This document shows, piece after piece, positions 24,689 through 36,289 of a stretch of 64,000 bases of DNA; within the stretch, counting starts at the first letter, position 1, and each line of letters starts with the position of its first letter. The notes under the pieces were generated by a model that worked only from the letters and a program-made list of their open reading frames with translations, was not told the origin of the DNA and did not search any database. Location: the NCBI GenBank assembly GCA_965207065.1, contig OZ242260.1:2688001-2752000 (forward strand), written 5' to 3'. The DNA comes from a bacterium (GTDB lineage: Bacteria; UBA8248). The position numbers and the translations under genes are program-made.

Positions 24689-25474
24689 TCAGGGAGAAAA
24701 TCGCTGGAGAATGGCTTTTGCATGTACTCTAATTTCTGGTGTCCAGTTCTGTTCCCAGTCTGTCAGCAACTCCCCATAGGTGCAGGCAATAAATTTCACC
24801 TCGTCTTCCATTACTTCTTTTCTGAAAATATCGATTTCCTCCTTGTGATTAATTTTGGTTATTTCGTCGATGGGTCTGCCATTTTTTGGCCAACACTCGG
24901 GTTCTGCATAAATATAGAATAGGGTGGCCTTTTGGTCTTCGAATTTGCGCCCCGGTTGGATTTGCGTTCTCAAAGCAAAGGCGTGTTTGACGAGTTGGGT
25001 CGCGTCGAGATGCTCAAAGTGTCTTTCGTTTTTATGAAGCTTGTCTCTTACGTTCTCGTAACCCTTCATACGCTTGCCCCAAACTTGCCTCCAATACGCA
25101 CACGAAAAAGAAGCTTTCTTGTTTCTTCGAAAAGGCTCGAACCTTTTTGACTCGATGCCGATGAGTTCAGATGGCGTGATAACCAGGGCATCCAGAACGG
25201 GGTGGCGGCCGCCACGCCAAGGGAAGCGCACTGTCTTCTCAAGAGCCAACGAAACCGCTGATCCTTTCCATTGGTCACATTCAGGAAGGAGGGGCAGATC
25301 CCACGCTCGATTGAGAAAGAACCCAAAGGTATTGGCCGCGAGCGCGGCGGAGGATTCCGGACTGTCAAACTTCCCGCTCTCTATTTCGTTACCTGCTGCG
25401 GCGTTGAATATTAATTCGATTTCTTCACCCGGAACGCCGGGCAGCCATCTTTGGGAACTGTTAATTGTTGTCAA
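24689..25474 (-). CDS. Putative PD-(D/E)XK restriction-endonuclease-like protein (PGN_0703-like)
   Basis: SPESSAALAANTF; HPVLDALV..LIGIESKRFEPF (D..ExK); LDATQLVKHAFAL; visibly lower GC than the flanks. Confidence 0.6.
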   Translation of the reverse strand: MTTINSSQRWLPGVPGEEIELIFNAAAGNEIESGKFDSPESSAALAANTFGFFLNRAWDLPLLPECDQWKGSAVSLALEKTVRFPWRGGRHPVLDALVITPSELIGIESKRFEPFRRNKKASFSCAYWRQVWGKRMKGYENVRDKLHKNERHFEHLDATQLVKHAFALRTQIQPGRKFEDQKATLFYIYAEPECWPKNGRPIDEITKINHKEEIDIFRKEVMEDEVKFIACTYGELLTDWEQNWTPEIRVHAKAILQRFSP

Positions 25475-25590: not shown

Positions 25591-26868
25591 TTACGCCTTC
25601 ACCTTCTCGTTGGCGAGGTGCGCAATGGAGGAGGCGAGGATTTCTGCGCCCTTCACCATGTCGTCAAAGTGCGTGAACTCCTCGGGCGTGTGCGAGAGCC
25701 CGCCCACCGAGGGAATGAACACCATTCCGATCGGGCATATCGCCGCCATGCGGCAGGCGTCGTGCACCCCGCCGCTCGATAGCGTGAGCGCGGCGTGTCC
25801 CGTTTCTTTGGAAGCGCGGCGGAGCGCCTTTTGAATGTTGTTGGAGGTGGGGCAGACGGCCAGCTTCTTCACGTCGGAGAGGCGGCCTTCGACGCCCCGC
25901 TCCTTCTCGATGGCGGCAAGCGTTTTTTCCATCCGCGCGAGGGTGCGCTCCATCACCGCCTGGCTTCTGCTTCTGAGATCGAAAGAAAGCCTCGCCCCTC
26001 CGGGCACGATGGACACCCATCCCGGGAGCGCTTCCATCTCCCCGAAGGTGATTGTTACGCGCTGAGACTCGGGCGCGCGGTTCACGAAGTTCTCCATGCG
26101 CACCATGAAGTCCGCCGCCGCGATTCCGGCGTCCTTTCGGTAGGGCATGGGCTGTCCGCCCGAGTGTGCCGTGACGCCAGTGAAGTGAACCTCGCCCCTC
26201 GTGTATCCCACCACCCTGTCCACGATGCCGATGGGTATCTCGGCCGATTCGAGCACCGGCCCCTGTTCGATGTGAAGCTCCAGAAAGGCCTTGAGTGAAC
26301 CGTCTTTAATCCGGCACGAGCGTACGCGCGCAGGATTGCCGCCCACCGCCTCGATGGCCTCATAGAGTGATTTTCCCGTAGGCGGATGCTCCGTGTTCTT
26401 CAAATCTTTCACGCCCACGACACCCGTGGCGACGCTGCTGCCGAACACCGTCATCCCGCATGCGGATTCCTCACCCACGAAGGCCATCACCTCGATGGGG
26501 TGATCGTGGGCGAGTCCCGTTTCGTCGATGCGCCGGAACGCTTCGAGAGCAGTGAGCACGCCCGCGGGGCCGTCGAAGCGTCCGCCCGGGCTCTGGGAAT
26601 CGAGATGCGAGCCGGCCATCACGGCGGGAAGTCCGCGCACGCGGCCCTCTTTTCGTCCATACAGATTCCCCACGGCGTCGACCCGCGTCTCAAGGCCCGC
26701 GTTCTTCATCCAGCCCTCGACGAGGTCTCGCACCTCGTTGTAGACCGGCGTGAAGGCCACGCGGTCGAGGCCCGTTTTTCCGTATTTGCCGATCTTCGCC
26801 TGGGCGTTGAACTCACGCCTCATGCGGGCGCGGTTCGCGCGGAGGGGAAACGTTTCTTTAGACGGCAT
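25591..26868 (-). CDS. Zn-dependent hydrolase, allantoate amidohydrolase/N-carbamoyl-L-amino acid hydrolase family
   Basis: DAVGNLYGR; GSHLDS..GGRFDG; GEE; FLELHIEQGPVLE; AHSG; SGGVHDA; GLSHTPEE. Confidence 0.92.
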   Translation of the reverse strand: MPSKETFPLRANRARMRREFNAQAKIGKYGKTGLDRVAFTPVYNEVRDLVEGWMKNAGLETRVDAVGNLYGRKEGRVRGLPAVMAGSHLDSQSPGGRFDGPAGVLTALEAFRRIDETGLAHDHPIEVMAFVGEESACGMTVFGSSVATGVVGVKDLKNTEHPPTGKSLYEAIEAVGGNPARVRSCRIKDGSLKAFLELHIEQGPVLESAEIPIGIVDRVVGYTRGEVHFTGVTAHSGGQPMPYRKDAGIAAADFMVRMENFVNRAPESQRVTITFGEMEALPGWVSIVPGGARLSFDLRSRSQAVMERTLARMEKTLAAIEKERGVEGRLSDVKKLAVCPTSNNIQKALRRASKETGHAALTLSSGGVHDACRMAAICPIGMVFIPSVGGLSHTPEEFTHFDDMVKGAEILASSIAHLANEKVKA

Positions 26869-26898
26869 CAAGCGGCCTCCTTGGAAAACAAAACTGGA

Positions 26899-27651
26899 CT
26901 AAAAGAGATCCTTTGGCACAGGCACTTCTTCGTAGTCTTCGGGTTGCAGCGGGTTATCCGGCACTATCTCCAGCATCTCGAAATAGTGGTAGGTTTGCCG
27001 TAGGTGCTGGAAGGCGTGCCCGAGCGAGAGAATCATCAACTCATGTACGGTAATGGGTCCCATATAGCTCGACACTTTTTTGGCGAGCGCCTCGCCGCCG
27101 TCTGTCAGAAAGTCGGTGAGCTTGGCCTGAATTTCATCCCCATAGGCGCAGATATCTTCGTTGGTATCATAATCGTTCGCCATCGTTTCATACCGCCGCA
27201 CCATATCTTCGGTGTACTCTCCCGATGCGTGAGTCTGCATCACGAGGTCCGGACGCTCGAAGCTGTGCCATGTGAGCTGGCGAAGCGTGCGGGGTCTGCC
27301 GGGGGATACCCAGTCGAGCGTTTCGTATGGAATCTGGCGGATCACGCGGCGAAAGGCGTCGAACACCATCTCGAAATAGTGGAGCATTTTTTCAGACGAG
27401 AGGGGACCGGCGCCTTCCTGTTCGATGTCAAAGGCCTCGCGAAGGGCATCCACGTCGTAGCCCACTACCACATTTTCTCCGCGCACGGCGACGGGCAGGG
27501 CCTTGATACCCAGCGCCTTGAGTTCCGCCTGGGCTTCGGCGTCGTTCGTGCAGTCTCTGTTGACGACTTCCAGACCGCTGGACGAGAGAAACTCTCTCGT
27601 AAGGGCGCAGGTGTATCAGCCGTGCCGCGTGTAGACTTTGACAGCTTCCAT
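26899..27651 (-). CDS. Probable selenoprotein: glutaredoxin/NrdH-like domain (U-Y-T-C) fused to a DinB/YfiT-like domain, 250 aa
   Basis: GGGGAG RBS + ATG 27651; MEAVKVYTRHG-TGA-YTCALTREFL..ELKALGIKALPVAVRGENVVVGYD continues in frame into the DinB ORF (H...HAFQHLRQ); SECIS-like hairpin follows the TGA. Confidence 0.85.
27582..27600 (-). promoter_or_regulatory. Putative bacterial SECIS element
   Basis: mRNA ACGAGAGA-GUU-UCUCUCGU, a perfect 8-bp stem starting 15 nt after the in-frame UGA (27618-27616), with G first in the loop. Confidence 0.7.
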
Positions 27652-27824
27652 CGATTTTCTCCCCGATGAGCGCGAAAGTGATTTTTTATGGGCGAATCAT
27701 ACCAAAACGATTGGGGTGAGAAAAACTGCCTCGTGCGCTTTGGCGAACAAGCCCGCGTGTTTTACTATCCCGTGAGTTGCGGTGTGCTCGGTTTGAAGTG
27801 TTGACCTTGAACAAGGGAACTCCA

Positions 27825-29351
27825 ATGCCTAGATGGTTCGTGAAGGGTGATATCGACGGCTTTTTCGGCCTGTGGATGGACAACCTCATCAATCTTCTGC
27901 TCATCGTGAGTTTCTTGAAAGGGTTGCTGGGTTTTCCCGAGTCACTAATATTCGGGCGCGTATTGCCCGCTGCGGCCCTGAGTCTTCTGGGGGGCAACCT
28001 TTTCTATACTTGGCAGGCGCGGCGTCTGGCCGTACGCGAAGGCCGAGACGATGTGACCGCCATGCCTTACGGCCTCAACACGGTGACGCTGTTTGCGTTC
28101 ATCTTTTTCGTCATGCTGCCCGTCAAGCTCAAGACCGGAAGCGCCGAAGCGGCCTGGCAGGCAGGTCTGGCGGCCTGTTTCGTGAGCGGGGTGATCGAGA
28201 CAGTCGGTGCGCTGGTGGGCGGGTGGATCAGGCGGGTCGCGCCAAGGGCCGCTCTGCTCTCCGCACTTGGAGGCATCGCGCTCACTTTCATTGCGATGGA
28301 TTTCGCATTCAGAATCTGGGAGAATCCGCTCCTCTCCATGGTGCCCCTGGGAATCATCCTGGTCCATTATTTCGGCGGATTCAGATTTCCCTTCGGCGTG
28401 CCGGGTGGCCTCGTAGCGGTGGCGTTGGGAGTGGTTCTCTCCGCTGTCATCAAGGGGTTTCCGGTCGGTATCCCGGCGCCTGTAGGGCTGGCGCTTCCAT
28501 CCTCCGCCCTCGGGCCTTTGTCTGACGCTCTTTTCGGTCCGCTGGCCTGGGACTACCTCGCGGTTTCCATCCCCATGGGTCTGATGACGCTGGTGGGCAG
28601 CCTGATGTGCCTGGAAAGCGCAGCTGCGGCCGGTGACAGTTACGACACGGGTAGCTCCCTCGCGGTGAACGGCGCGGGATCGCTTCTCGCGGCGTGCTTG
28701 GGGAGTTGTTTTCCCACGACGATATATATCGGACATCCGGCCTGGAAGAGGGTTGGGGCGCGCGCTGGTTACAGCGCCTTGAACGGGACGGTGATGACGG
28801 TTCTCTGCTTTACTGGTTCGATAGCGGCGCTTTCGAAAATCATTCCGGGCGAGGCGCTCTTCGCCCTCATGCTCTGGATCGGGGTGATGATGCTCACCCA
28901 GGCATTTCAGGCTGTGCCGAAGAACCACGGGCCGGCCGTGGCTATCGGTTTGATACCCGCCATCGCCGCCTGGGGTTTGCTGATGGTGGAATCCTCCCTC
29001 AGGGGAGCGGGCACAACCTTGTGGAAAGTGGGACAGGACGCGTTCGCCAAAGTGGGTTTTCACCTGGTGGGGATGGTTACCTTGGAGCGTGGATTTCTAT
29101 TTACGTCCATCATCCTTACGGCCATCGTAGCGAAACTGGTAGATAAGGAACCGAAACAGGCGGGAGGATGGGCGTTGGCCGGCGCGGTATTGAGCTGGTT
29201 CGGGATAATTCACGCCTGGAGAATCACGCCCGGCGGCGTCGTTAGTTTTTTCGGCTGGGGGGCGGCGCCTGGCATAGCTGTCGGTTACTTGCTTATCGCG
29301 GTCTTGTTTTTCTTGTTCGGGCTGAAACCCTTGGATAAAGTAACATCTTGA
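27825..29351 (+). CDS. NCS2 family (xanthine/uracil/AzgA-like) permease
   Basis: WFVKGDIDGFFGL..DNL; TAMPYG; ESAAAAGDSY; FPTTIYIGHPAWK..GARAGYS. Confidence 0.85.
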   Translation: MPRWFVKGDIDGFFGLWMDNLINLLLIVSFLKGLLGFPESLIFGRVLPAAALSLLGGNLFYTWQARRLAVREGRDDVTAMPYGLNTVTLFAFIFFVMLPVKLKTGSAEAAWQAGLAACFVSGVIETVGALVGGWIRRVAPRAALLSALGGIALTFIAMDFAFRIWENPLLSMVPLGIILVHYFGGFRFPFGVPGGLVAVALGVVLSAVIKGFPVGIPAPVGLALPSSALGPLSDALFGPLAWDYLAVSIPMGLMTLVGSLMCLESAAAAGDSYDTGSSLAVNGAGSLLAACLGSCFPTTIYIGHPAWKRVGARAGYSALNGTVMTVLCFTGSIAALSKIIPGEALFALMLWIGVMMLTQAFQAVPKNHGPAVAIGLIPAIAAWGLLMVESSLRGAGTTLWKVGQDAFAKVGFHLVGMVTLERGFLFTSIILTAIVAKLVDKEPKQAGGWALAGAVLSWFGIIHAWRITPGGVVSFFGWGAAPGIAVGYLLIAVLFFLFGLKPLDKVTS

Positions 29352-29406: not shown

Positions 29407-30927
29407 ATGAAGATGCAAAATGAGTCGGTATTTGATTTGGTATCCATCGGTGGGGGTGTCGGCGGTCTGGTGGCGTCCGTTGGGGCTGCCCAACTGGGGG
29501 CCAAAGCCGCGCTCGTGGAGAAGGCGAAGCTCGGCGGAGATTGCCTGAACTATGGGTGCGTGCCTTCGAAAGGTCTTATCCGCTCGGCGCGGCTTGCTGC
29601 GCAGGCGCGCTCGATGCCCGAGTTCGGGATTGACGTGAGCGACGTGCGGGTCGATTTTCCCCGTGTCATGAAGCGGATGAAGGCGGCCCAGGCCCACATC
29701 GGCGAGCATGATGCGCCAGAGCGTTTCGAGGGCATGGGAATTGAGGTGATCTTCGGAGATGGCGCTTTCACCGGTCCCGATACGTTTCAGATTGGGGACA
29801 GGACGCTGCGGGCCAAGCGGTTTTTGCTGTCCATGGGCAGCTCTCCCTTCGTGCCGCCCATCGCCGGTCTCGATAGCGTGCCCTATCTCACGAACGAGAC
29901 CGTTTTCGATTTGGAGGAGTTGCCGAGACGCCTGGTTGTGCTGGGAGCGGGACCGATAGGACTGGAATTGTCACAGGCGTTTCAGCAACTCGGCGCAGAG
30001 GTGGAAGTGCTGCAAAGCGCACCTAAGCTCTTGCCGAGACTCGATAAGGAAATGGCTGAAATTCTGGCCGATTCCTTGACGGAATCCGGTCTCAAACTCC
30101 ATTTCAACGTGAACACGCAGAGAGTCGAGAAACGAGGGGAAGAGATTTTTTTAGAGGCCGATACGCCGTCTGGAAAAAGGGAGTGGGTGTGCGATCAACT
30201 GCTCATTGCGACTGGACGATCGCCCAACGTGGGTGGGATGGACCTGGAGAAGGCTGGCGTGATTTACACCCCGCACGGTGTGGAGACGGATGAATATCTT
30301 CAAACCGCGAATCCGCGCATCTTCGCCGCAGGCGATATCAGGGGCCAGTATCTCTTTACCCACATGGCGGAGTATGAGGCGGGTGTGGCGCTCAGGAACA
30401 TGCTCTTCAGCGCGCCATTTGGCATCTCGCTCCCGTTTCTGAAGAAGAAAACGAACTATGACGCCGTGCCGTGGACGATCTATACCACACCCGAGGCGGC
30501 GCATGTCGGTATGAGCGAAGCTGACGCCGAAGCGGCATTGGGGGCGAATCGCATCCAAGTGTTTCGCTTTCCGATGAACCGTGTGGATCGCGCCGTCCTG
30601 GACGGGGAAACGGAAGGAATCTGCAAGGTCGTGTGCGACGAGAAGGGAAGGCTCGTGGGAACTGATCTGGTCGGGCCAGCAGCGGGCGAGATATTACACG
30701 AGTTCGTGCTGGCCGTCCGCAAGAAGATGCACATCAAGGAGGTGGTGGATACGGTTCACGTCTATCCCACTCTGGCGCAGGTGAACAAGAGGGTGGCGGG
30801 TCGATATTATGCCGAAAGGCTCTTCACGCCGGCCTTCAGGAAGAAAATGCAACGCTTGTTCGGGCTTAAGGGTAGCTTGGAAGTGACCGACCCTGCTGAT
30901 CTCAACGGGCACGGCGCGGAGGAGTAG
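29407..30927 (+). CDS. Class I pyridine nucleotide-disulfide oxidoreductase (mercuric reductase/E3-like)
   Basis: IGGGVGG; LGGDCLNYGCVPSK; GAGPIGLE; IFAAGD; HVYPT; no C-terminal CC. Confidence 0.9.
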   Translation: MKMQNESVFDLVSIGGGVGGLVASVGAAQLGAKAALVEKAKLGGDCLNYGCVPSKGLIRSARLAAQARSMPEFGIDVSDVRVDFPRVMKRMKAAQAHIGEHDAPERFEGMGIEVIFGDGAFTGPDTFQIGDRTLRAKRFLLSMGSSPFVPPIAGLDSVPYLTNETVFDLEELPRRLVVLGAGPIGLELSQAFQQLGAEVEVLQSAPKLLPRLDKEMAEILADSLTESGLKLHFNVNTQRVEKRGEEIFLEADTPSGKREWVCDQLLIATGRSPNVGGMDLEKAGVIYTPHGVETDEYLQTANPRIFAAGDIRGQYLFTHMAEYEAGVALRNMLFSAPFGISLPFLKKKTNYDAVPWTIYTTPEAAHVGMSEADAEAALGANRIQVFRFPMNRVDRAVLDGETEGICKVVCDEKGRLVGTDLVGPAAGEILHEFVLAVRKKMHIKEVVDTVHVYPTLAQVNKRVAGRYYAERLFTPAFRKKMQRLFGLKGSLEVTDPADLNGHGAEE

Positions 30928-31647: not shown

Positions 31648-33051
31648 TCAACCCTCGAGGGTCATGAGCATGGGCTCTTCCAACGCATCGGCCACCCACC
31701 TCAAGAATTTGACGCCATCCGCTCCGTCAATAATGCGGTGATCGTAAGAAACCATGAGCGGAAGCATCAGGCGCGGTTCGAATTTCTTCTCGGCTTTCGC
31801 CCAAACCGGTTCCATCCGCGCCCGGGAGACGCCGAGGATGGCGACTTCGGGCCAGTTCACTATCGGGGTGAAATAGGTGCCGCCAAAGCCTCCGAGGTTC
31901 GTGATGGTGATGGAGCCGCCCTGCATGTCGTCAGGAGCGAGTTTTCGGGAGCGGGCGCGTTCCGCCGCTACACCTAGTTCCACTGATAGTTCGACGATGT
32001 TTTTCTTGTCCGCATTTCGAATCACCGGAACAAGCAAACCGTTTTCGGTATCCACGGCAACACCCACGTGAACATAGTTTTTGTAGATGATCTCATCGTT
32101 CGCCGTATCTACGCTCGCGTTGAATTGCGGGAAGACTTTGAGGGCCGATGCGATGACTTTAATGAGAATGGCGGTTACGGTGAGTTTGCCACCGGCGGCC
32201 TCTGCTTTTGGGGAGTATTTTCTTCTCAATGCGTCGAGTTCGGAAATATCGGCTTTTTCGCACTGAGTTACATGGGGGATGTTCGTCCATGCGCGAGAGA
32301 GATTCACAGACGTCGCACGCCGGATGCCCGACATGGGCTTGCGTTCAATTCCTCCCCAGCGGGCGAGGTCGGGCAGTTGAACGGGCACGTTCATCAATGC
32401 GGGAGCAGGCGTATCCGGTACGGCGGTACCTCCTTGCGCCGCCACGAATTCCTTGACGTCTTGCGCGGATATTCTGCCTCCAATCCCGCTGCCCGGCACA
32501 TCGCTTATGTCGACGCCCGCCTCGCGAGCGATTCTGCGTACGGAGGGCGCCGCGGGCGCGGGCTCTTTTTTGCTTTTTGGTACTGGAGTTTCGGCAGCCT
32601 CCGGCGCCGGCGCCTCTGACGGGGCATCGGTGGATTCCAGGGTAAATCTGGCAGGCGCGGGTTCAGTCGTGGCATCTTCGCCCGCTGTCTCTAAAGGCTG
32701 CGCAGGCTGGTCTATCAGCATGGGCTGGGTTTCTTCCGGACCCATTGACTCGGCGGTGTCTGATGAGATTTCCTCAAAATCCTTCTTATCCAAAGTGGGC
32801 TCCATGCTCGCGTCGCTTTCTTCGATGACGAGAATGGTTTCTCCCACTTCGGCGTCGTCGCCGGGTTTGAGATGAATTTCCGTTATCTTGCCCCCAACGG
32901 ATGAGGGGACTTCAATGAGCGCCTTGTCGGTTTCCACTTCGATGACCGACTGATCCACCGCTATGGTATCTCCCACGTTCACCAAAACGGCGATCACTTT
33001 TCCGGACGTAATATTTTCCCCGAGTTCGGGGAGTTTGAGTTCGATGGTCAT
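31648..33051 (-). CDS. aceF: Pyruvate dehydrogenase E2 (dihydrolipoamide acetyltransferase)
   Basis: One lipoyl domain (ETDKA); AAPSVRRIARE E3-binding domain; SYDHRIIDGAD; downstream of aceE. Confidence 0.92.
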   Translation of the reverse strand: MTIELKLPELGENITSGKVIAVLVNVGDTIAVDQSVIEVETDKALIEVPSSVGGKITEIHLKPGDDAEVGETILVIEESDASMEPTLDKKDFEEISSDTAESMGPEETQPMLIDQPAQPLETAGEDATTEPAPARFTLESTDAPSEAPAPEAAETPVPKSKKEPAPAAPSVRRIAREAGVDISDVPGSGIGGRISAQDVKEFVAAQGGTAVPDTPAPALMNVPVQLPDLARWGGIERKPMSGIRRATSVNLSRAWTNIPHVTQCEKADISELDALRRKYSPKAEAAGGKLTVTAILIKVIASALKVFPQFNASVDTANDEIIYKNYVHVGVAVDTENGLLVPVIRNADKKNIVELSVELGVAAERARSRKLAPDDMQGGSITITNLGGFGGTYFTPIVNWPEVAILGVSRARMEPVWAKAEKKFEPRLMLPLMVSYDHRIIDGADGVKFLRWVADALEEPMLMTLEG

Positions 33052-33072: not shown

Positions 33073-35874
33073 TTAGGAAATCATCGGGTTGGTTTTTTCG
33101 GGGTCGATATCGAGGTCTTTCATCGCATTGTTCACGAGTTCGGGGTATATCTTCTTGTTACGCGCCAAGCTGTACAGAGTGGCAAGCACGATATAACGCG
33201 CGTCGATTTCAAAGAAATCTCTCAGGGAAGCTCTCGACTCGCTTCTCCCAAACCCCTCGGTCCCCAGCGAAACCATGGGCTTGGGCACCCATTTTGAAAT
33301 CGAATCGGGTGTAGCCTTCACATAGTCCGAGGCCGCCACGCAAACGCCGGGTGCGCGCGCGAGACATTGCGTCACGTAAGGGGTTTTCGGTGCGCAATCC
33401 GGGTGCAGCATGTTCCATCGCTCGACTTCGAGTGCGTCCCGCCTGAGCTCCTTGTAGCTCGTTACGCTCCAGACGTCTGTGGAAATCGTATAGCGCTTCT
33501 CCAACATTTCCTGCGCTTTGAGCACCTCGTTCATGATGGTGCCGCTGCCCAACAATTGCGCATTGAGACCCGAGTCCATCTCCGAGCGCTTGAAGAGATA
33601 CATGCCTTTCAATATTCCGTCCCGCGCCCCCTCCGGCATCGGCGGCATGGCGTAGTTCTCGTTGTAGGCGGTGAGGTAGTAGAAGATTTTCTCCTGTTCC
33701 TGGTACATCCTGCGAATTCCGTCCTGAATGATCACCGCCATCTCGAAGGCGAAAGCCGGATCGTATGTGAGCAGATTCGGTACGGGATACGCCAGATGGT
33801 GGCTGTTGCCGTCCTGGTGCTGGAGTCCTTCCCCGTTCAGAGTGGTTCTGCCGGCTGTCCCGCCGATCAGGAAGCCGCGCGCGCACATGTCCGCCGCCGC
33901 CCAAATCAGATCGCCGATGCGCTGAAAGCCGAACATCGAATAGTAGATGTAGAACGGGATGGTGTTCACGCCGTGGGTGGCGTATGCGGTTCCGGCGGCG
34001 ATGAAAGAAGCCATCGAACCCGCCTCGGTGATTCCTTCCTCGAGAATCTGTCCGTCTTGCGCTTCTTTGTAATACAAAAGGCTGTCGCGGTCGACGGGTT
34101 CATACAGTTGACCGGCGTGGGAGTAGATCCCGATTTGCCGGAACAGGGCTTCCATGCCGAATGTTCTGGCCTCATCGGGTACGATGGGAACGATGAGTTT
34201 GCCCAATCCCTCGTCGCGGAGCAGCTTGCTCAGGATTCTGACGAAGACCATGGTCGTCGAGACTTCGCGCCCGTCCGTTCCTTGCAAGAACTCCTCGAAC
34301 AAGTCGTCAGGCGGCGGCTTGAGCGGAGTGGATACGCTCCGCCTCGTGGGGACATACCCGCCGAGTTTTTCCCGCTTTTCTTTGAGGTACAGGATTTCGG
34401 GGCTATCGTCCGCCGGGCGGTAAAACGGCGCCTCGGCGACTTCTTCATCGGATATGGGTATCTCGAAGCGCGTGCGGAATTCCTTGAGTTCATCCTCGTT
34501 GAGTTTTTTCTGCTGGTGGGTGACGTTTCTGCCCTCACCACCCTCGCCCAAACCATAGCCCTTCACTGTCTTCGCGAGTATGACTGTGGGACGCTCCTTG
34601 CACTCCATGGCGGCCTGGTAGGCGGCGAACACTTTTTCGGGGTCATGTCCTCCGCGCCGCATTCTGTGGAGTTGGGCGTCGGTCATCATGTCGGCCATCG
34701 CCTGTAGCCGCGGGTCGCCGCCGAAGAAGTGCTCGCGCACGTAGTCGCCTTTTCGGAGCGTCTCGACGCTGTATTTCTGATACTGGCCGTCGACCGTCTC
34801 GTTCATCCGCTGGAGCAGGACGCCCTCGTCGTCCATATCGATGAGGGGATCCCAGTCGTCCCCCCAGATGACCTTGATGACGTTCCAGCGCGCGCCCCGG
34901 AAGGCGGCCTCGAGTTCCTGGATGATTTTCCCGTTGCCGCGCACCGGCCCGTCGAGGCGCTGGAGATTGCAGTTGATGACGAAGATCAGGTTGTCGAGCT
35001 TCTCCCGCGCGGCCAGGGTGATGGCGCCCAGCGATTCGGGCTCGTCCATCTCGCCGTCTCCCAGGAAGGCCCATACCTTCTGGCCCGTCGCGGGCTTGAG
35101 TCCGCGATCTTCCAGGTAATGGAGATAGCGCGCCTGGTATATCGCCATCAGGGGAGAGAGGCCCATCGATACGGTGGGGAATTCCCAGAAATCGGGCATC
35201 AGCCAGGGATGCGGGTAGGAGGAGAGGCCGCCGCCCTCTTTGAGCTCGCGCCGGAAGTTTTCGAGGTTTTTCTCCGTCAGGCGTCCTTCGAGAAATGCCC
35301 GGGAGTAGATGCCGGGTGCGCTGTGGCCCTGAAAGTAGACGATGTCGCCGCCGCAGGGGTCGTTCTTGCCCCGGAAGAAATGGTTGAACCCGATTTCGAG
35401 CAGCGTGGCGGCCGAGGCGTATGTGGAGATGTGCCCGCCGATAGAGGCGTCCTCCCTGTTGGCGCGCGCCACCATGGCCATCGCGTTCCAGCGGACGAGG
35501 CTCTTGATCCGCCGCTCGATATTCCGGTCCCCGGGGAAGGCTGGCTGCTTTTCCAGCGGGATGGTGTTGATATACGGCGTATTCGCCGAGAACGGGCGGA
35601 CGACGCCCGCGCGCACGGCATAAACCTGTAGATGGCGAAGGAGGGTCTTCGTTCGATCGGGGCCCCTGGTTTGCAGGACGTAATCGAGCGATTCGAGCCA
35701 CTCGTCGGTCTCTACCTTGTCGAGTTCCGTTTCAGCCTCGGGAAACGGCGCGCCCGCCGGGTCGGGCAGATACCTCGCGTCGCCGGAGTCGTCCCGCTGC
35801 GCCCCGTTCGAGGAGATGGACGGGCCATCCTCCCTTACGGGCGCTTCCCCGATATCCTGAGGATTCCTCTCCAT
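33073..35874 (-). CDS. aceE: Pyruvate dehydrogenase E1, homodimeric type
   Basis: ETDEWLESL; GGHISTYAS; YFQGH; FPTVSMGL; GDGEMDEPES; GEGLQHQDG. Confidence 0.97.
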   Translation of the reverse strand: MERNPQDIGEAPVREDGPSISSNGAQRDDSGDARYLPDPAGAPFPEAETELDKVETDEWLESLDYVLQTRGPDRTKTLLRHLQVYAVRAGVVRPFSANTPYINTIPLEKQPAFPGDRNIERRIKSLVRWNAMAMVARANREDASIGGHISTYASAATLLEIGFNHFFRGKNDPCGGDIVYFQGHSAPGIYSRAFLEGRLTEKNLENFRRELKEGGGLSSYPHPWLMPDFWEFPTVSMGLSPLMAIYQARYLHYLEDRGLKPATGQKVWAFLGDGEMDEPESLGAITLAAREKLDNLIFVINCNLQRLDGPVRGNGKIIQELEAAFRGARWNVIKVIWGDDWDPLIDMDDEGVLLQRMNETVDGQYQKYSVETLRKGDYVREHFFGGDPRLQAMADMMTDAQLHRMRRGGHDPEKVFAAYQAAMECKERPTVILAKTVKGYGLGEGGEGRNVTHQQKKLNEDELKEFRTRFEIPISDEEVAEAPFYRPADDSPEILYLKEKREKLGGYVPTRRSVSTPLKPPPDDLFEEFLQGTDGREVSTTMVFVRILSKLLRDEGLGKLIVPIVPDEARTFGMEALFRQIGIYSHAGQLYEPVDRDSLLYYKEAQDGQILEEGITEAGSMASFIAAGTAYATHGVNTIPFYIYYSMFGFQRIGDLIWAAADMCARGFLIGGTAGRTTLNGEGLQHQDGNSHHLAYPVPNLLTYDPAFAFEMAVIIQDGIRRMYQEQEKIFYYLTAYNENYAMPPMPEGARDGILKGMYLFKRSEMDSGLNAQLLGSGTIMNEVLKAQEMLEKRYTISTDVWSVTSYKELRRDALEVERWNMLHPDCAPKTPYVTQCLARAPGVCVAASDYVKATPDSISKWVPKPMVSLGTEGFGRSESRASLRDFFEIDARYIVLATLYSLARNKKIYPELVNNAMKDLDIDPEKTNPMIS

Positions 35875-36289
35875 CGATAGGGCATCTCCCGTGGCGTGTG
35901 GCGGTGTGGATATGCCTGAATATATCACGTTCAGCCGGCGAACGGAAACGCCCCGTCCCGGGAGGCGGGGCGGTCCGGCGGGGTTGGCCGGCCGGGGAGC
36001 GGGCGTTGACCGGCGGGATGCGGCGCGGGAGGAAATGCGGGCAGTTGCGGGGAAATGCGCGTGCGCCGAAAAACTTTTTTGGCGATGAATCTTAGTGCGG
36101 TGCGCTCAGATATATATTATAACCCTTTTGATTACAATGATTTCCGGGAGCATGGCATTTCAGCAATTTATCGAAAAACCCCGTGAATTTATCGATATTT
36201 ACGGATAATTGGATTATTTTCATTTTCTTCGTCATCCTTGCGCCCAAGCGCGCCTCCGCCCTCATCGAGGACCCCGGCCCGGAGCCGGG

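Follow-up and report, generated by a model that had tools for sequence, protein, structure and literature searches.

A probable selenoprotein joining a glutaredoxin-like domain to a DinB/YfiT-like domain in a bacterium of the UBA8248 lineage

The thiol used by characterised DinB enzymes is free bacillithiol or mycothiol. Selenocysteine (Sec)-containing glutaredoxins with a U-x-x-C motif are a known selenoprotein family and are tabulated in the accessible text of PMC13188914. One of them, cGrx1 of Clostridium (Alkaliphilus) oremlandii, natively carries Sec at the first position of U-P-x-C and was crystallised as a Cys variant, according to the accessible part of PMC7642778. Here we describe a gene in which these two kinds of domain are predicted to be joined. 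It lies on the minus strand of a 64,000-nucleotide stretch (hereafter the window) of contig OZ242260.1, positions 2,688,001 to 2,752,000, in the assembly GCA_965207065.1 of a bacterium of the lineage UBA8248. We consider it very likely that Sec is inserted at codon 12 of this 250-codon gene and likely that the product is a redox-active two-domain enzyme; that both statements hold together is also likely.

Reading frame and conservation of the UGA codon

The frame opens with an ATG at 27651-27649 and is closed by a TAG at 26901-26899, and the sole in-frame stop between them is a TGA at codon 12. The table-11 list of open reading frames (ORFs) for the locus contains only a GTG-started ORF of 195 amino acids (aa), 26899..27486, and databases carry this truncated form under the name "DinB family protein". 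A first-pass annotation of the window had proposed that the 195-aa ORF extends in frame to the ATG at 27651, preceded by a GGGGAG ribosome-binding site, that the TGA at 27618-27616 is the only interruption, and that gene callers would truncate such a gene. Our reading of the DNA bore out the extension and the single TGA, and truncation is evident in the databases, where 41 of 43 homologues are 154-233 aa long. The remaining two are 250 aa long with W at codon 12; in the DNA of locus L057 a TGA underlies this W, which gene callers produce as an artefact when they apply an alternative translation table. Many other relatives found with HMMER start just past the motif (M-T-K-E-F-L-S, for example), as is expected of gene callers at a Sec codon.

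When the 51 genomes available for the whole phylum were searched with read-through of stops, 42 matches were returned. Exactly one TGA was present in each of the 39 that cover codon 12, which comprise 38 orthologues (96-55% identity) and one paralogue (48%); of the other three, two begin at a contig end and one is a paralogue with the DinB domain only. The gene was found in 38 of the 41 genomes of the window's bacterial family, and reading of the DNA placed the TGA at the same codon in 30/30 loci and in 13/13 further loci. A metagenome scan run with more distant members yielded 30 loci, of which 22 contain sequence upstream of the match and 8 begin inside the gene. All 22 judgeable loci, 29-50% identical to the window protein, have TGA at the homologous codon, within the motif R-P-G-U-F-T-C or, in two loci, K-S-G-U-S-A-C. 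A DNA run made independently in a different study spans the 1.3-kb stretch in full, and at 27616-27618 no difference is listed. Judged from these alignments, the position of the TGA is conserved far beyond chance.

In 35 full-length Cys homologues (247-276 aa) the C-x-x-C motif is invariant, most commonly as Q-P-G-C-S/T-S-C, and its first Cys aligns with U12. A 111-aa Cys fragment, P0096, is 83% identical to a Sec form and has C opposite the TGA. This replacement of Cys by Sec would mark the first residue of CxxC as catalytically critical and offers a handle on the function of this DinB branch. Upstream of the TGA, the amino acid at codons 4, 5, 7, 8, 9 and 11 was constant in 36 distinct orthologues, with a synonymous diversity of 0.2-0.69 at these codons, and similarity among relatives drops off abruptly 5' of the ATG, with codons 1-11 conserved. 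By this comparison the peptide before the TGA is evidently under protein-level selection.

The UGA is followed, inside the coding sequence, by a hairpin resembling a selenocysteine insertion sequence (SECIS), whose stem of 8 bp carries GUU as its apical loop. Counted from the UGA, the stem starts after 15 nt and the loop G is separated by 23 nt; the 23-nt stretch 27580-27602 folds at -10.1 kcal/mol (z -3.78), a stability reached by 0 of 200 shuffled sequences. The bacterial SECIS (bSECIS) model quoted in the legend of Fig. 2 of PMC13188914 has a loop of 3-9 nt, a stem of 4-16 bp, a G in the first two loop positions, a distance of 16-37 nt from the UGA and a minimum free energy of <= -7.5 kcal/mol. 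Our hairpin is in agreement with all four bSECIS criteria as quoted there.

Across 54 distinct sequences, 96.8% of the stem cells were paired. One pair was G-C in 31 sequences, A-U in 23 and mismatched in 0, the codons behind it being Arg AGR with Leu CTC or Lys AAR with Leu CTT; another pair contained seven G-U wobbles. The covariation score of 0.185 (shuffled mean, 0.122) was reached by 0 of 500 shuffles, and sliding the 3' partner by 1-3 columns reduced the pairing to 38-79%. Most stem positions are invariant because the encoded peptide is conserved too. Synonymous diversity in codons 18-23 was 0.154, compared with a gene mean of 0.40, and was the second-lowest of 245 six-codon windows. A search of Rfam with positions 26500-28000 (E <= 10) produced no match; to our knowledge, Rfam has no general bacterial SECIS model, and this null result is uninformative for that reason. 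The hairpin offers a compact example of a SECIS made from the codons of a conserved peptide, T-R/K-E-F-L-S, in which the choice of Leu codon (CTC or CTT) tracks the Arg or Lys codon across the stem, so that RNA structure and peptide motif constrain each other.

A stand-alone glutaredoxin-like gene in a genome of the same order (L069; G026:C5, minus strand, TGA at about 3033 of the reverse strand) also has a TGA at the first CxxC position (T-P-T-U-P-H-C) and a hairpin encoded by A-K-E-F-L-S in the same place. A stem encoded by E-F-L may be a common SECIS solution for glutaredoxin-like selenoproteins.

Profile searches of the genome detected selA (579 bits), selB (386.1 bits), selD (334.5 bits) and tRNA-Sec, the selC product (75.9 bits), all above their curated cut-offs. 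The selD gene (G000:C1:543537-544499, minus strand, locus L001) itself has one in-frame TGA, indicating a Sec-containing SelD. As to possible reductants, a thioredoxin reductase gene, trxB, is present (358.5 bits; G000:C1 1211724-1212617), and glutathione synthetase scored below the cut-off (73 versus 299 bits) with TIGR01380, the one model used. About 460 bp from trxB lies a second, stand-alone glutaredoxin-like ORF of approximately 80 aa (G000:C1:1213080-1213292, minus strand; locus L189:1480-1740, minus strand), which has an in-frame TGA in U-A-P-C followed by K-E-F-L-S and terminates at another TGA. It matched the query weakly (E 0.0046) and probably represents a further selenoprotein missing from the annotation. 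Thioredoxin reductase, a gshB score below its cut-off and the Sec-glutaredoxin-like ORF near trxB point indirectly, as gene content, to NrdH-like recycling.

The first-pass annotation had also named what could undo its reading, namely a genome lacking the Sec machinery, a TGA confined to one strain with no conserved hairpin, and a sequencing error. These doubts are answered by the four components above, by the recurrence of the TGA among near and distant relatives, by the covarying stem and by the independent run, which agrees at the TGA, and homologues with Cys at codon 12, for which it had advised a check, do exist.

Domains, family and proposed mechanism

The predicted protein comprises an N-terminal glutaredoxin/NrdH-like part and a C-terminal DinB/YfiT-like part. 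The Pfam family Glutaredoxin (PF00462) matched residues 4-56 with 33.5 bits (gathering cut-off, 22.9), and DinB_2 (PF12867) matched residues 93-219 marginally, with 25.1 bits against a cut-off of 24.8. The motifs present are U12-x-x-C15, E-F-L, the cis-Pro P53, G-Y-D, and His129 with His212-x3-His216. In a family alignment of 123 sequences, conservation of P53, H129 and H216 was 90% or higher, and all three His residues were invariant or nearly so when the Cys and Sec forms were aligned separately. An AlphaFold2 model built from the same alignment had a mean predicted local distance difference test score (pLDDT) of 96.4 and a predicted template-modelling score (pTM) of 0.91. In the model, residues 1-75 adopt a beta-alpha-beta-alpha-beta-beta-alpha order followed by a helical bundle, and U12-x-x-C15 sits at the N-terminus of the helix formed by residues 13-24. 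The pTM points to a fixed arrangement of the two domains, not a flexible tether.

A Foldseek search of the PDB matched the redoxin half to cGrx1 (7c10/7c12) with a template-modelling (TM) score of 0.89-0.90, to BC3987, and to NrdH (TM 0.83). The DinB half matched DR0053 (6iz2, TM 0.83), YfiT (1rxq, 0.70) and 8f5v (0.65), with maleylpyruvate isomerase (2nsf) also among the hits at a TM of the target of 0.45; no solved structure in the PDB covered both domains together. The glutaredoxin/NrdH pattern and the DinB/YfiT His triad that the first-pass annotation had read in the two halves of the protein are therefore both recognisable, by profile and fold and by conservation, respectively, and the prediction of structure that it had advised returned a glutaredoxin fold attached to a DinB/YfiT bundle. 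Its further question, whether homologues share the fusion, is settled by the size of the family.

A HMMER search of 1.84 billion representative proteins gave 466 relatives at E <= 1e-3, and a pattern scan in which each species was represented by a single genome yielded at least 580 confirmed relatives of the Cys form. The best 80 of these loci belong mostly to Burkholderiales (Ramlibacter, Paraburkholderia, Caballeronia, Acidovorax and Variovorax), with some from Alphaproteobacteria. The Cys-form proteins are named only "glutaredoxin" or "hypothetical protein" in their sources, the automatic name in the Atlas is "DinB superfamily/Glutaredoxin domain-containing protein", and no NCBIfam model reaches its cut-off on the fusion family. 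Where relatives of the Sec form bear a name, the labels are Nitrospinota, Nitrospinaceae and Tectomicrobia, and the sequencing runs that contain the window's stretch include sponge metagenomes. A quick maximum-likelihood tree (IQ-TREE) of 66 full-length rows, which excludes P0096 (a Cys variant resembling the Sec subfamily) and all truncated database proteins and draws its Cys rows from databases of predicted proteins, where the Sec forms are stored truncated, placed the 31 Sec rows beyond one branch with a Shimodaira-Hasegawa-like approximate likelihood ratio test (SH-aLRT) value of 100; the Sec forms therefore constitute a distinct subfamily.

Three family members depart from the usual arrangement. 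A DinB-only paralogue (G056:C349:17332-17916, L068) aligns with residues 61-250 of the query at 45% identity, has no TGA and lies at a contig end. A full Sec-containing paralogue (G023:C20:672-1436, L059; 48% identity) lacks the M20 neighbour described below. The 721-aa protein P0164 carries an MmgE/PrpD-family domain (approximately residues 22-400) fused to a glutaredoxin-DinB unit (471-716), and this fusion, together with the gene neighbourhood of the Cys forms, may reflect a functional link between MmgE/PrpD and glutaredoxin-DinB proteins.

In the mechanism that we propose, the UGA at codon 12 would be decoded as Sec by SelB and tRNA-Sec with the aid of the hairpin 15 nt downstream within the coding sequence. 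The product would consist of a glutaredoxin/NrdH-like domain with a selenol nucleophile packed rigidly on a DinB/YfiT bundle with a three-His metal site. The metal centre would bind and activate the substrate, which might be an electrophile or an oxidised sulfur or selenium compound; the tethered U12 selenolate would attack it, C15 would resolve the adduct to give a selenenylsulfide, and an NADPH-dependent flavoprotein, either thioredoxin reductase or the disulfide reductase encoded nearby, would recycle the enzyme. The tethered redoxin would thus replace the free bacillithiol or mycothiol used by characterised DinB transferases. This tethered-nucleophile mechanism is offered tentatively, as a possibility with less than an even chance of being correct. 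The first-pass annotation had suggested, as a possible chemistry, conjugation of electrophiles to thiols and the reverse reaction. Broader still, and rather doubtful, is the notion that the glutaredoxin-DinB fusions form an enzyme class of their own, a tethered redoxin standing in place of the diffusible thiol cofactor that every characterised DinB transferase requires and the UxxC forms being one large subfamily. If so, they would be self-contained metal-plus-selenol catalysts for organisms without those thiols (here apparently without glutathione synthetase), and the adjacent amidohydrolases might process the product in a mercapturate-like or a ureide/amide pathway.

Weighing of the alternatives

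If the TGA were a true stop, the real product would be the 195-aa DinB protein from the GTG at 27486, and the upstream glutaredoxin frame would be a decaying remnant or a short leader. Such a reading agrees with table-11 ORF calling and with the lengths of 41 of the 43 database homologues; however, codons 13-55 encode a Pfam-significant part of a glutaredoxin that is confidently folded in the model and whose protein sequence stays conserved even where overall identity has fallen to 29%, and a remnant would be expected to gather frameshifts and stops, whereas every sequence has exactly one TGA, always at one codon. We judge a true stop highly improbable. The W at codon 12 of two database entries could be taken to mean that the TGA is read as an ordinary amino acid, by a near-cognate tRNA for Trp, Cys or Arg or through a reassigned code, but that W is an artefact and the genome has a complete Sec system. 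The codon also aligns with the catalytic Cys and has a hairpin conforming to the SECIS model on its 3' side, and redox activity would be lost if Trp took the place of the attacking residue of CxxC, which makes ordinary decoding very unlikely. A sequencing error or a strain-specific nonsense mutation in a pseudogene, for which the bare in-frame stop is the only argument, is refuted by the TGA in 39/39 genome matches and 22/22 metagenome relatives and by the agreement of the independent run, and we give it practically no credence.

A genuine selenoprotein could nevertheless work in other ways. The redoxin might gate the DinB domain as a redox switch or sensor, or pass electrons to a separate client; NrdH/glutaredoxin-like domains usually donate electrons to other proteins, cGrx1 has been proposed to reduce MsrA (accessible part of PMC7642778), and gene contexts differ between lineages. 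Throughout the fusion family, however, neither the CxxC motif nor the His triad varies, and the model suggests a fixed interdomain arrangement; a switch or donor is possible but tentative in our estimate. A thiol-dependent isomerase or lyase acting on an organic acid or on a ureide or amide catabolite seems to us an unlikely identity for the protein. Such an enzyme would resemble the mycothiol-dependent maleylpyruvate isomerase, with its own Sec or Cys adding reversibly to the substrate. The occurrence of 2nsf among the Foldseek hits is consistent with it, as are the catabolic islands in which Cys forms are found (Bug/TctC in 30/80 and MmgE/PrpD in 10/80 loci), the 721-aa PrpD-like fusion protein, and the location of Sec forms beside amidohydrolases of three families in three lineages. 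On the other hand, the match to the isomerase is weaker than that to DR0053 (TM of the target 0.45 versus 0.83), each context is peculiar to a lineage, and loci from close relatives do not count as independent.

Several observations weigh against a redox-active Sec enzyme as proposed here. Its status as a selenoprotein is predicted from sequence. Longer regions after the UGA are just slightly more stable than their shuffled versions, with a z of -1.45 over 66 nt and of -1.76 over 49 nt, so that the hairpin by itself is what stands out, and the covariation in the stem rests mainly on one pair and few evolutionary events. The DinB_2 score exceeds the Pfam cut-off by just 0.3 bits, the predicted interdomain geometry was judged from the pTM, and the search for glutathione synthetase relied on one family model. 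No partner gene is conserved family-wide, the M20 gene being adjacent only in the Nitrospinaceae-like family, and therefore no substrate can be named. Contigs from RNA libraries (X15-X17, of which X16 and X17 seem to be duplicate records of a single data set) cover 27107-27410, 26729-26900 and 27670-27849, leaving the TGA and the hairpin uncovered; such contigs cannot show transcription, strand or ends, and therefore we make no claim of expression.

Neighbouring genes and known systems

The features of the locus are collected in Table 1. The downstream gene was assigned to the M20 hydantoinase/carbamoylase family with 348.8 bits for TIGR01879 (cut-off, 204); its best equivalog-level resemblances were to allantoate amidohydrolase and ErtE, both below their cut-offs. 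Of 12 orthologous loci representing 6 genera, 11 have an M20 amidase gene as the next gene downstream, separated by no more than some tens of bases. A terminator scan of the window revealed no terminator-like site between the two genes, which are probably co-transcribed, and a promoter scan found none. As a universal partner the M20 gene was rejected, being present in 0/80 proteobacterial Cys-form loci and 0/30 metagenome loci. Between the M20 gene and genes for a branched-chain-type ATP-binding cassette (ABC) transporter is an REase-ARP-like ORF with a restriction endonuclease fold (24689-25474, minus strand), of which the relatives L064-L067 have fragments or nothing; it looks like a lineage-specific insertion.

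Table 1. Positions of the predicted selenoprotein gene, its elements and its neighbours in the window
Feature	Position	Strand	Remarks
Predicted selenoprotein, complete coding sequence	26899..27651	(-)	250 codons + TAG stop; Sec at codon 12
GGGGAG, putative ribosome-binding site	27664-27659	(-)	7 nt 5' of ATG
TGA, codon 12, predicted to be read as Sec	27618-27616	(-)	First residue of U-x-x-C; C15 at 27609-27607
SECIS-like hairpin	27582..27600 (19 nt)	(-)	Codons 18-23 + first base of codon 24
Glutaredoxin/NrdH-like thioredoxin-fold domain, residues 1-75	27427..27651	(-)	PF00462, model and Foldseek
DinB/YfiT-like four-helix-bundle domain, residues 86-250	26902..27396	(-)	PF12867 and Foldseek
Putative metal ligands	H129 27267-27265; H212 27018-27016; H216 27006-27004	(-)	H...H-x3-H pattern
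M20 hydantoinase/carbamoylase-family amidase	25591..26868	(-)	ATG 26868, 30 nt past selenoprotein stop
Conserved 524-aa protein, divergent neighbour	27777..29351	(+)	No Pfam or NCBIfam match
Flavin adenine dinucleotide (FAD) pyridine-nucleotide-disulfide oxidoreductase, MerA/dihydrolipoyl dehydrogenase class	29407..30927	(+)	Pyr_redox_2, Pyr_redox_dim

The divergently encoded 524-aa protein was 66-79% identical in 7 of the 12 orthologous loci. Its language-model features in the Atlas scored 0.99 to clusters automatically named as NCS2/AGZA xanthine/uracil-type permeases, which is a lead only, and it may be an NCS2/AGZA-like permease. An overlapping 372-aa ORF (27945-29063, minus strand) is far less conserved and probably spurious. 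The FAD oxidoreductase scored 496 bits with NF004991, below the cut-off of 620, and 5 of the 12 loci encode it in the vicinity of the selenoprotein; it is a candidate reductase partner, as yet unproven. Beside it, on the minus strand, are a gene for a pyruvate-dehydrogenase-type E2 (31648-33051) and a 951-aa ORF (33073-35928) that may encode E1. The FAD oxidoreductase may instead be the E3 of such a complex rather than a partner of the selenoprotein.

Elsewhere in the family the neighbours vary. Thirteen closely related loci have LytB and VOC/glyoxalase genes upstream and Amt and GlnA genes downstream; VOC/glyoxalase was rejected as a universal partner, being restricted to this one lineage. 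An amidase-signature enzyme is encoded beside the gene in L162 and L164 and an S15 peptidase in L165 and L167, and the neighbours of Cys forms include Bug/TctC binding proteins (30 of 80 loci) and MmgE/PrpD proteins (10 of 80). The amide hydrolases and nitrogen-assimilation genes that recur near the family provide no more than a hint of its role, and the catalytic function of the fusion protein is inferred.

The first-pass annotation knew of no characterised example, and we found none in the literature or among curated models. Our literature searches turned up no paper on a DinB-type selenoprotein or a glutaredoxin-DinB fusion, the glutaredoxin-DinB/thiol search being judged from part of its results; the main text of PMC13188914 and of the BSepDB paper PMC13326102, as far as accessible, contains no mention of DinB, YfiT or PF12867, and the family may be counted as plain "Grx" in the supplementary lists of those catalogues. 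No curated model describing the glutaredoxin-DinB selenoprotein was found. The gene thus represents a previously unannotated selenoprotein architecture within a widespread, uncharacterised fusion family. It would add a well-supported family to the bacterial selenoproteome, with 39 mis-called genes in the phylum search alone and more in soil and sediment metagenomes, and since the family includes cultivable strains of Paraburkholderia, Caballeronia, Ramlibacter and Acidovorax, genetics is feasible.

Compared with cGrx1, the window protein shares the thioredoxin fold and 39-41% identity over approximately 71-74 columns (profile E 2e-17). However, cGrx1 is a stand-alone protein of approximately 75-84 residues with U-P-x-C, whereas the window protein has U-Y-T-C and an additional 165-residue DinB domain; cGrx1 is recycled by glutathione, according to the accessible part of PMC7642778, whereas glutathione synthetase was not found in the genome described here with TIGR01380. 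The NCBIfam models Uxx-star (NF041212), UXX-star 1-3 and YruB/NrdH hit the N-terminal domain with 22-44 bits, all below threshold (for example, 38.4 versus 66 and 44.4 versus 88.55), and none of these glutaredoxin-like models covers the DinB half. Uxx-star proteins carry Sec near the C-terminus, as the family name has it, whereas Sec in the window protein is at codon 12. Canonical glutathione S-transferases likewise have a thioredoxin-fold N-terminal domain followed by an all-helical domain, but the second domain of the window protein is a DinB bundle with a putative His3 site, and the low-quality, full-length Foldseek hits to these transferases (root-mean-square deviation 10-16 Å, TM 0.28-0.35) indicate analogy, not homology.

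With the DinB/YfiT proteins DR0053 (6iz2, Deinococcus radiodurans), YfiT (1rxq, B. subtilis), the mycothiol S-transferase of M. tuberculosis (8f5v) and 2nsf, the window protein shares the four-helix bundle and the H...H-x3-H spacing, with profile E values of 1.9e-7 to 3e-3 and an identity of only 13-17%. The matching His residues presumably bind the metal in YfiT. We have not filed the window protein as a member of the bacillithiol/mycothiol S-transferases (BstA/YfiT, MST). The DinB/YfiT proteins compared here are single-domain or other fusions, and the characterised ones use a free low-molecular-weight thiol; they have neither an N-terminal redoxin nor Sec, whereas the window protein is predicted to carry both.

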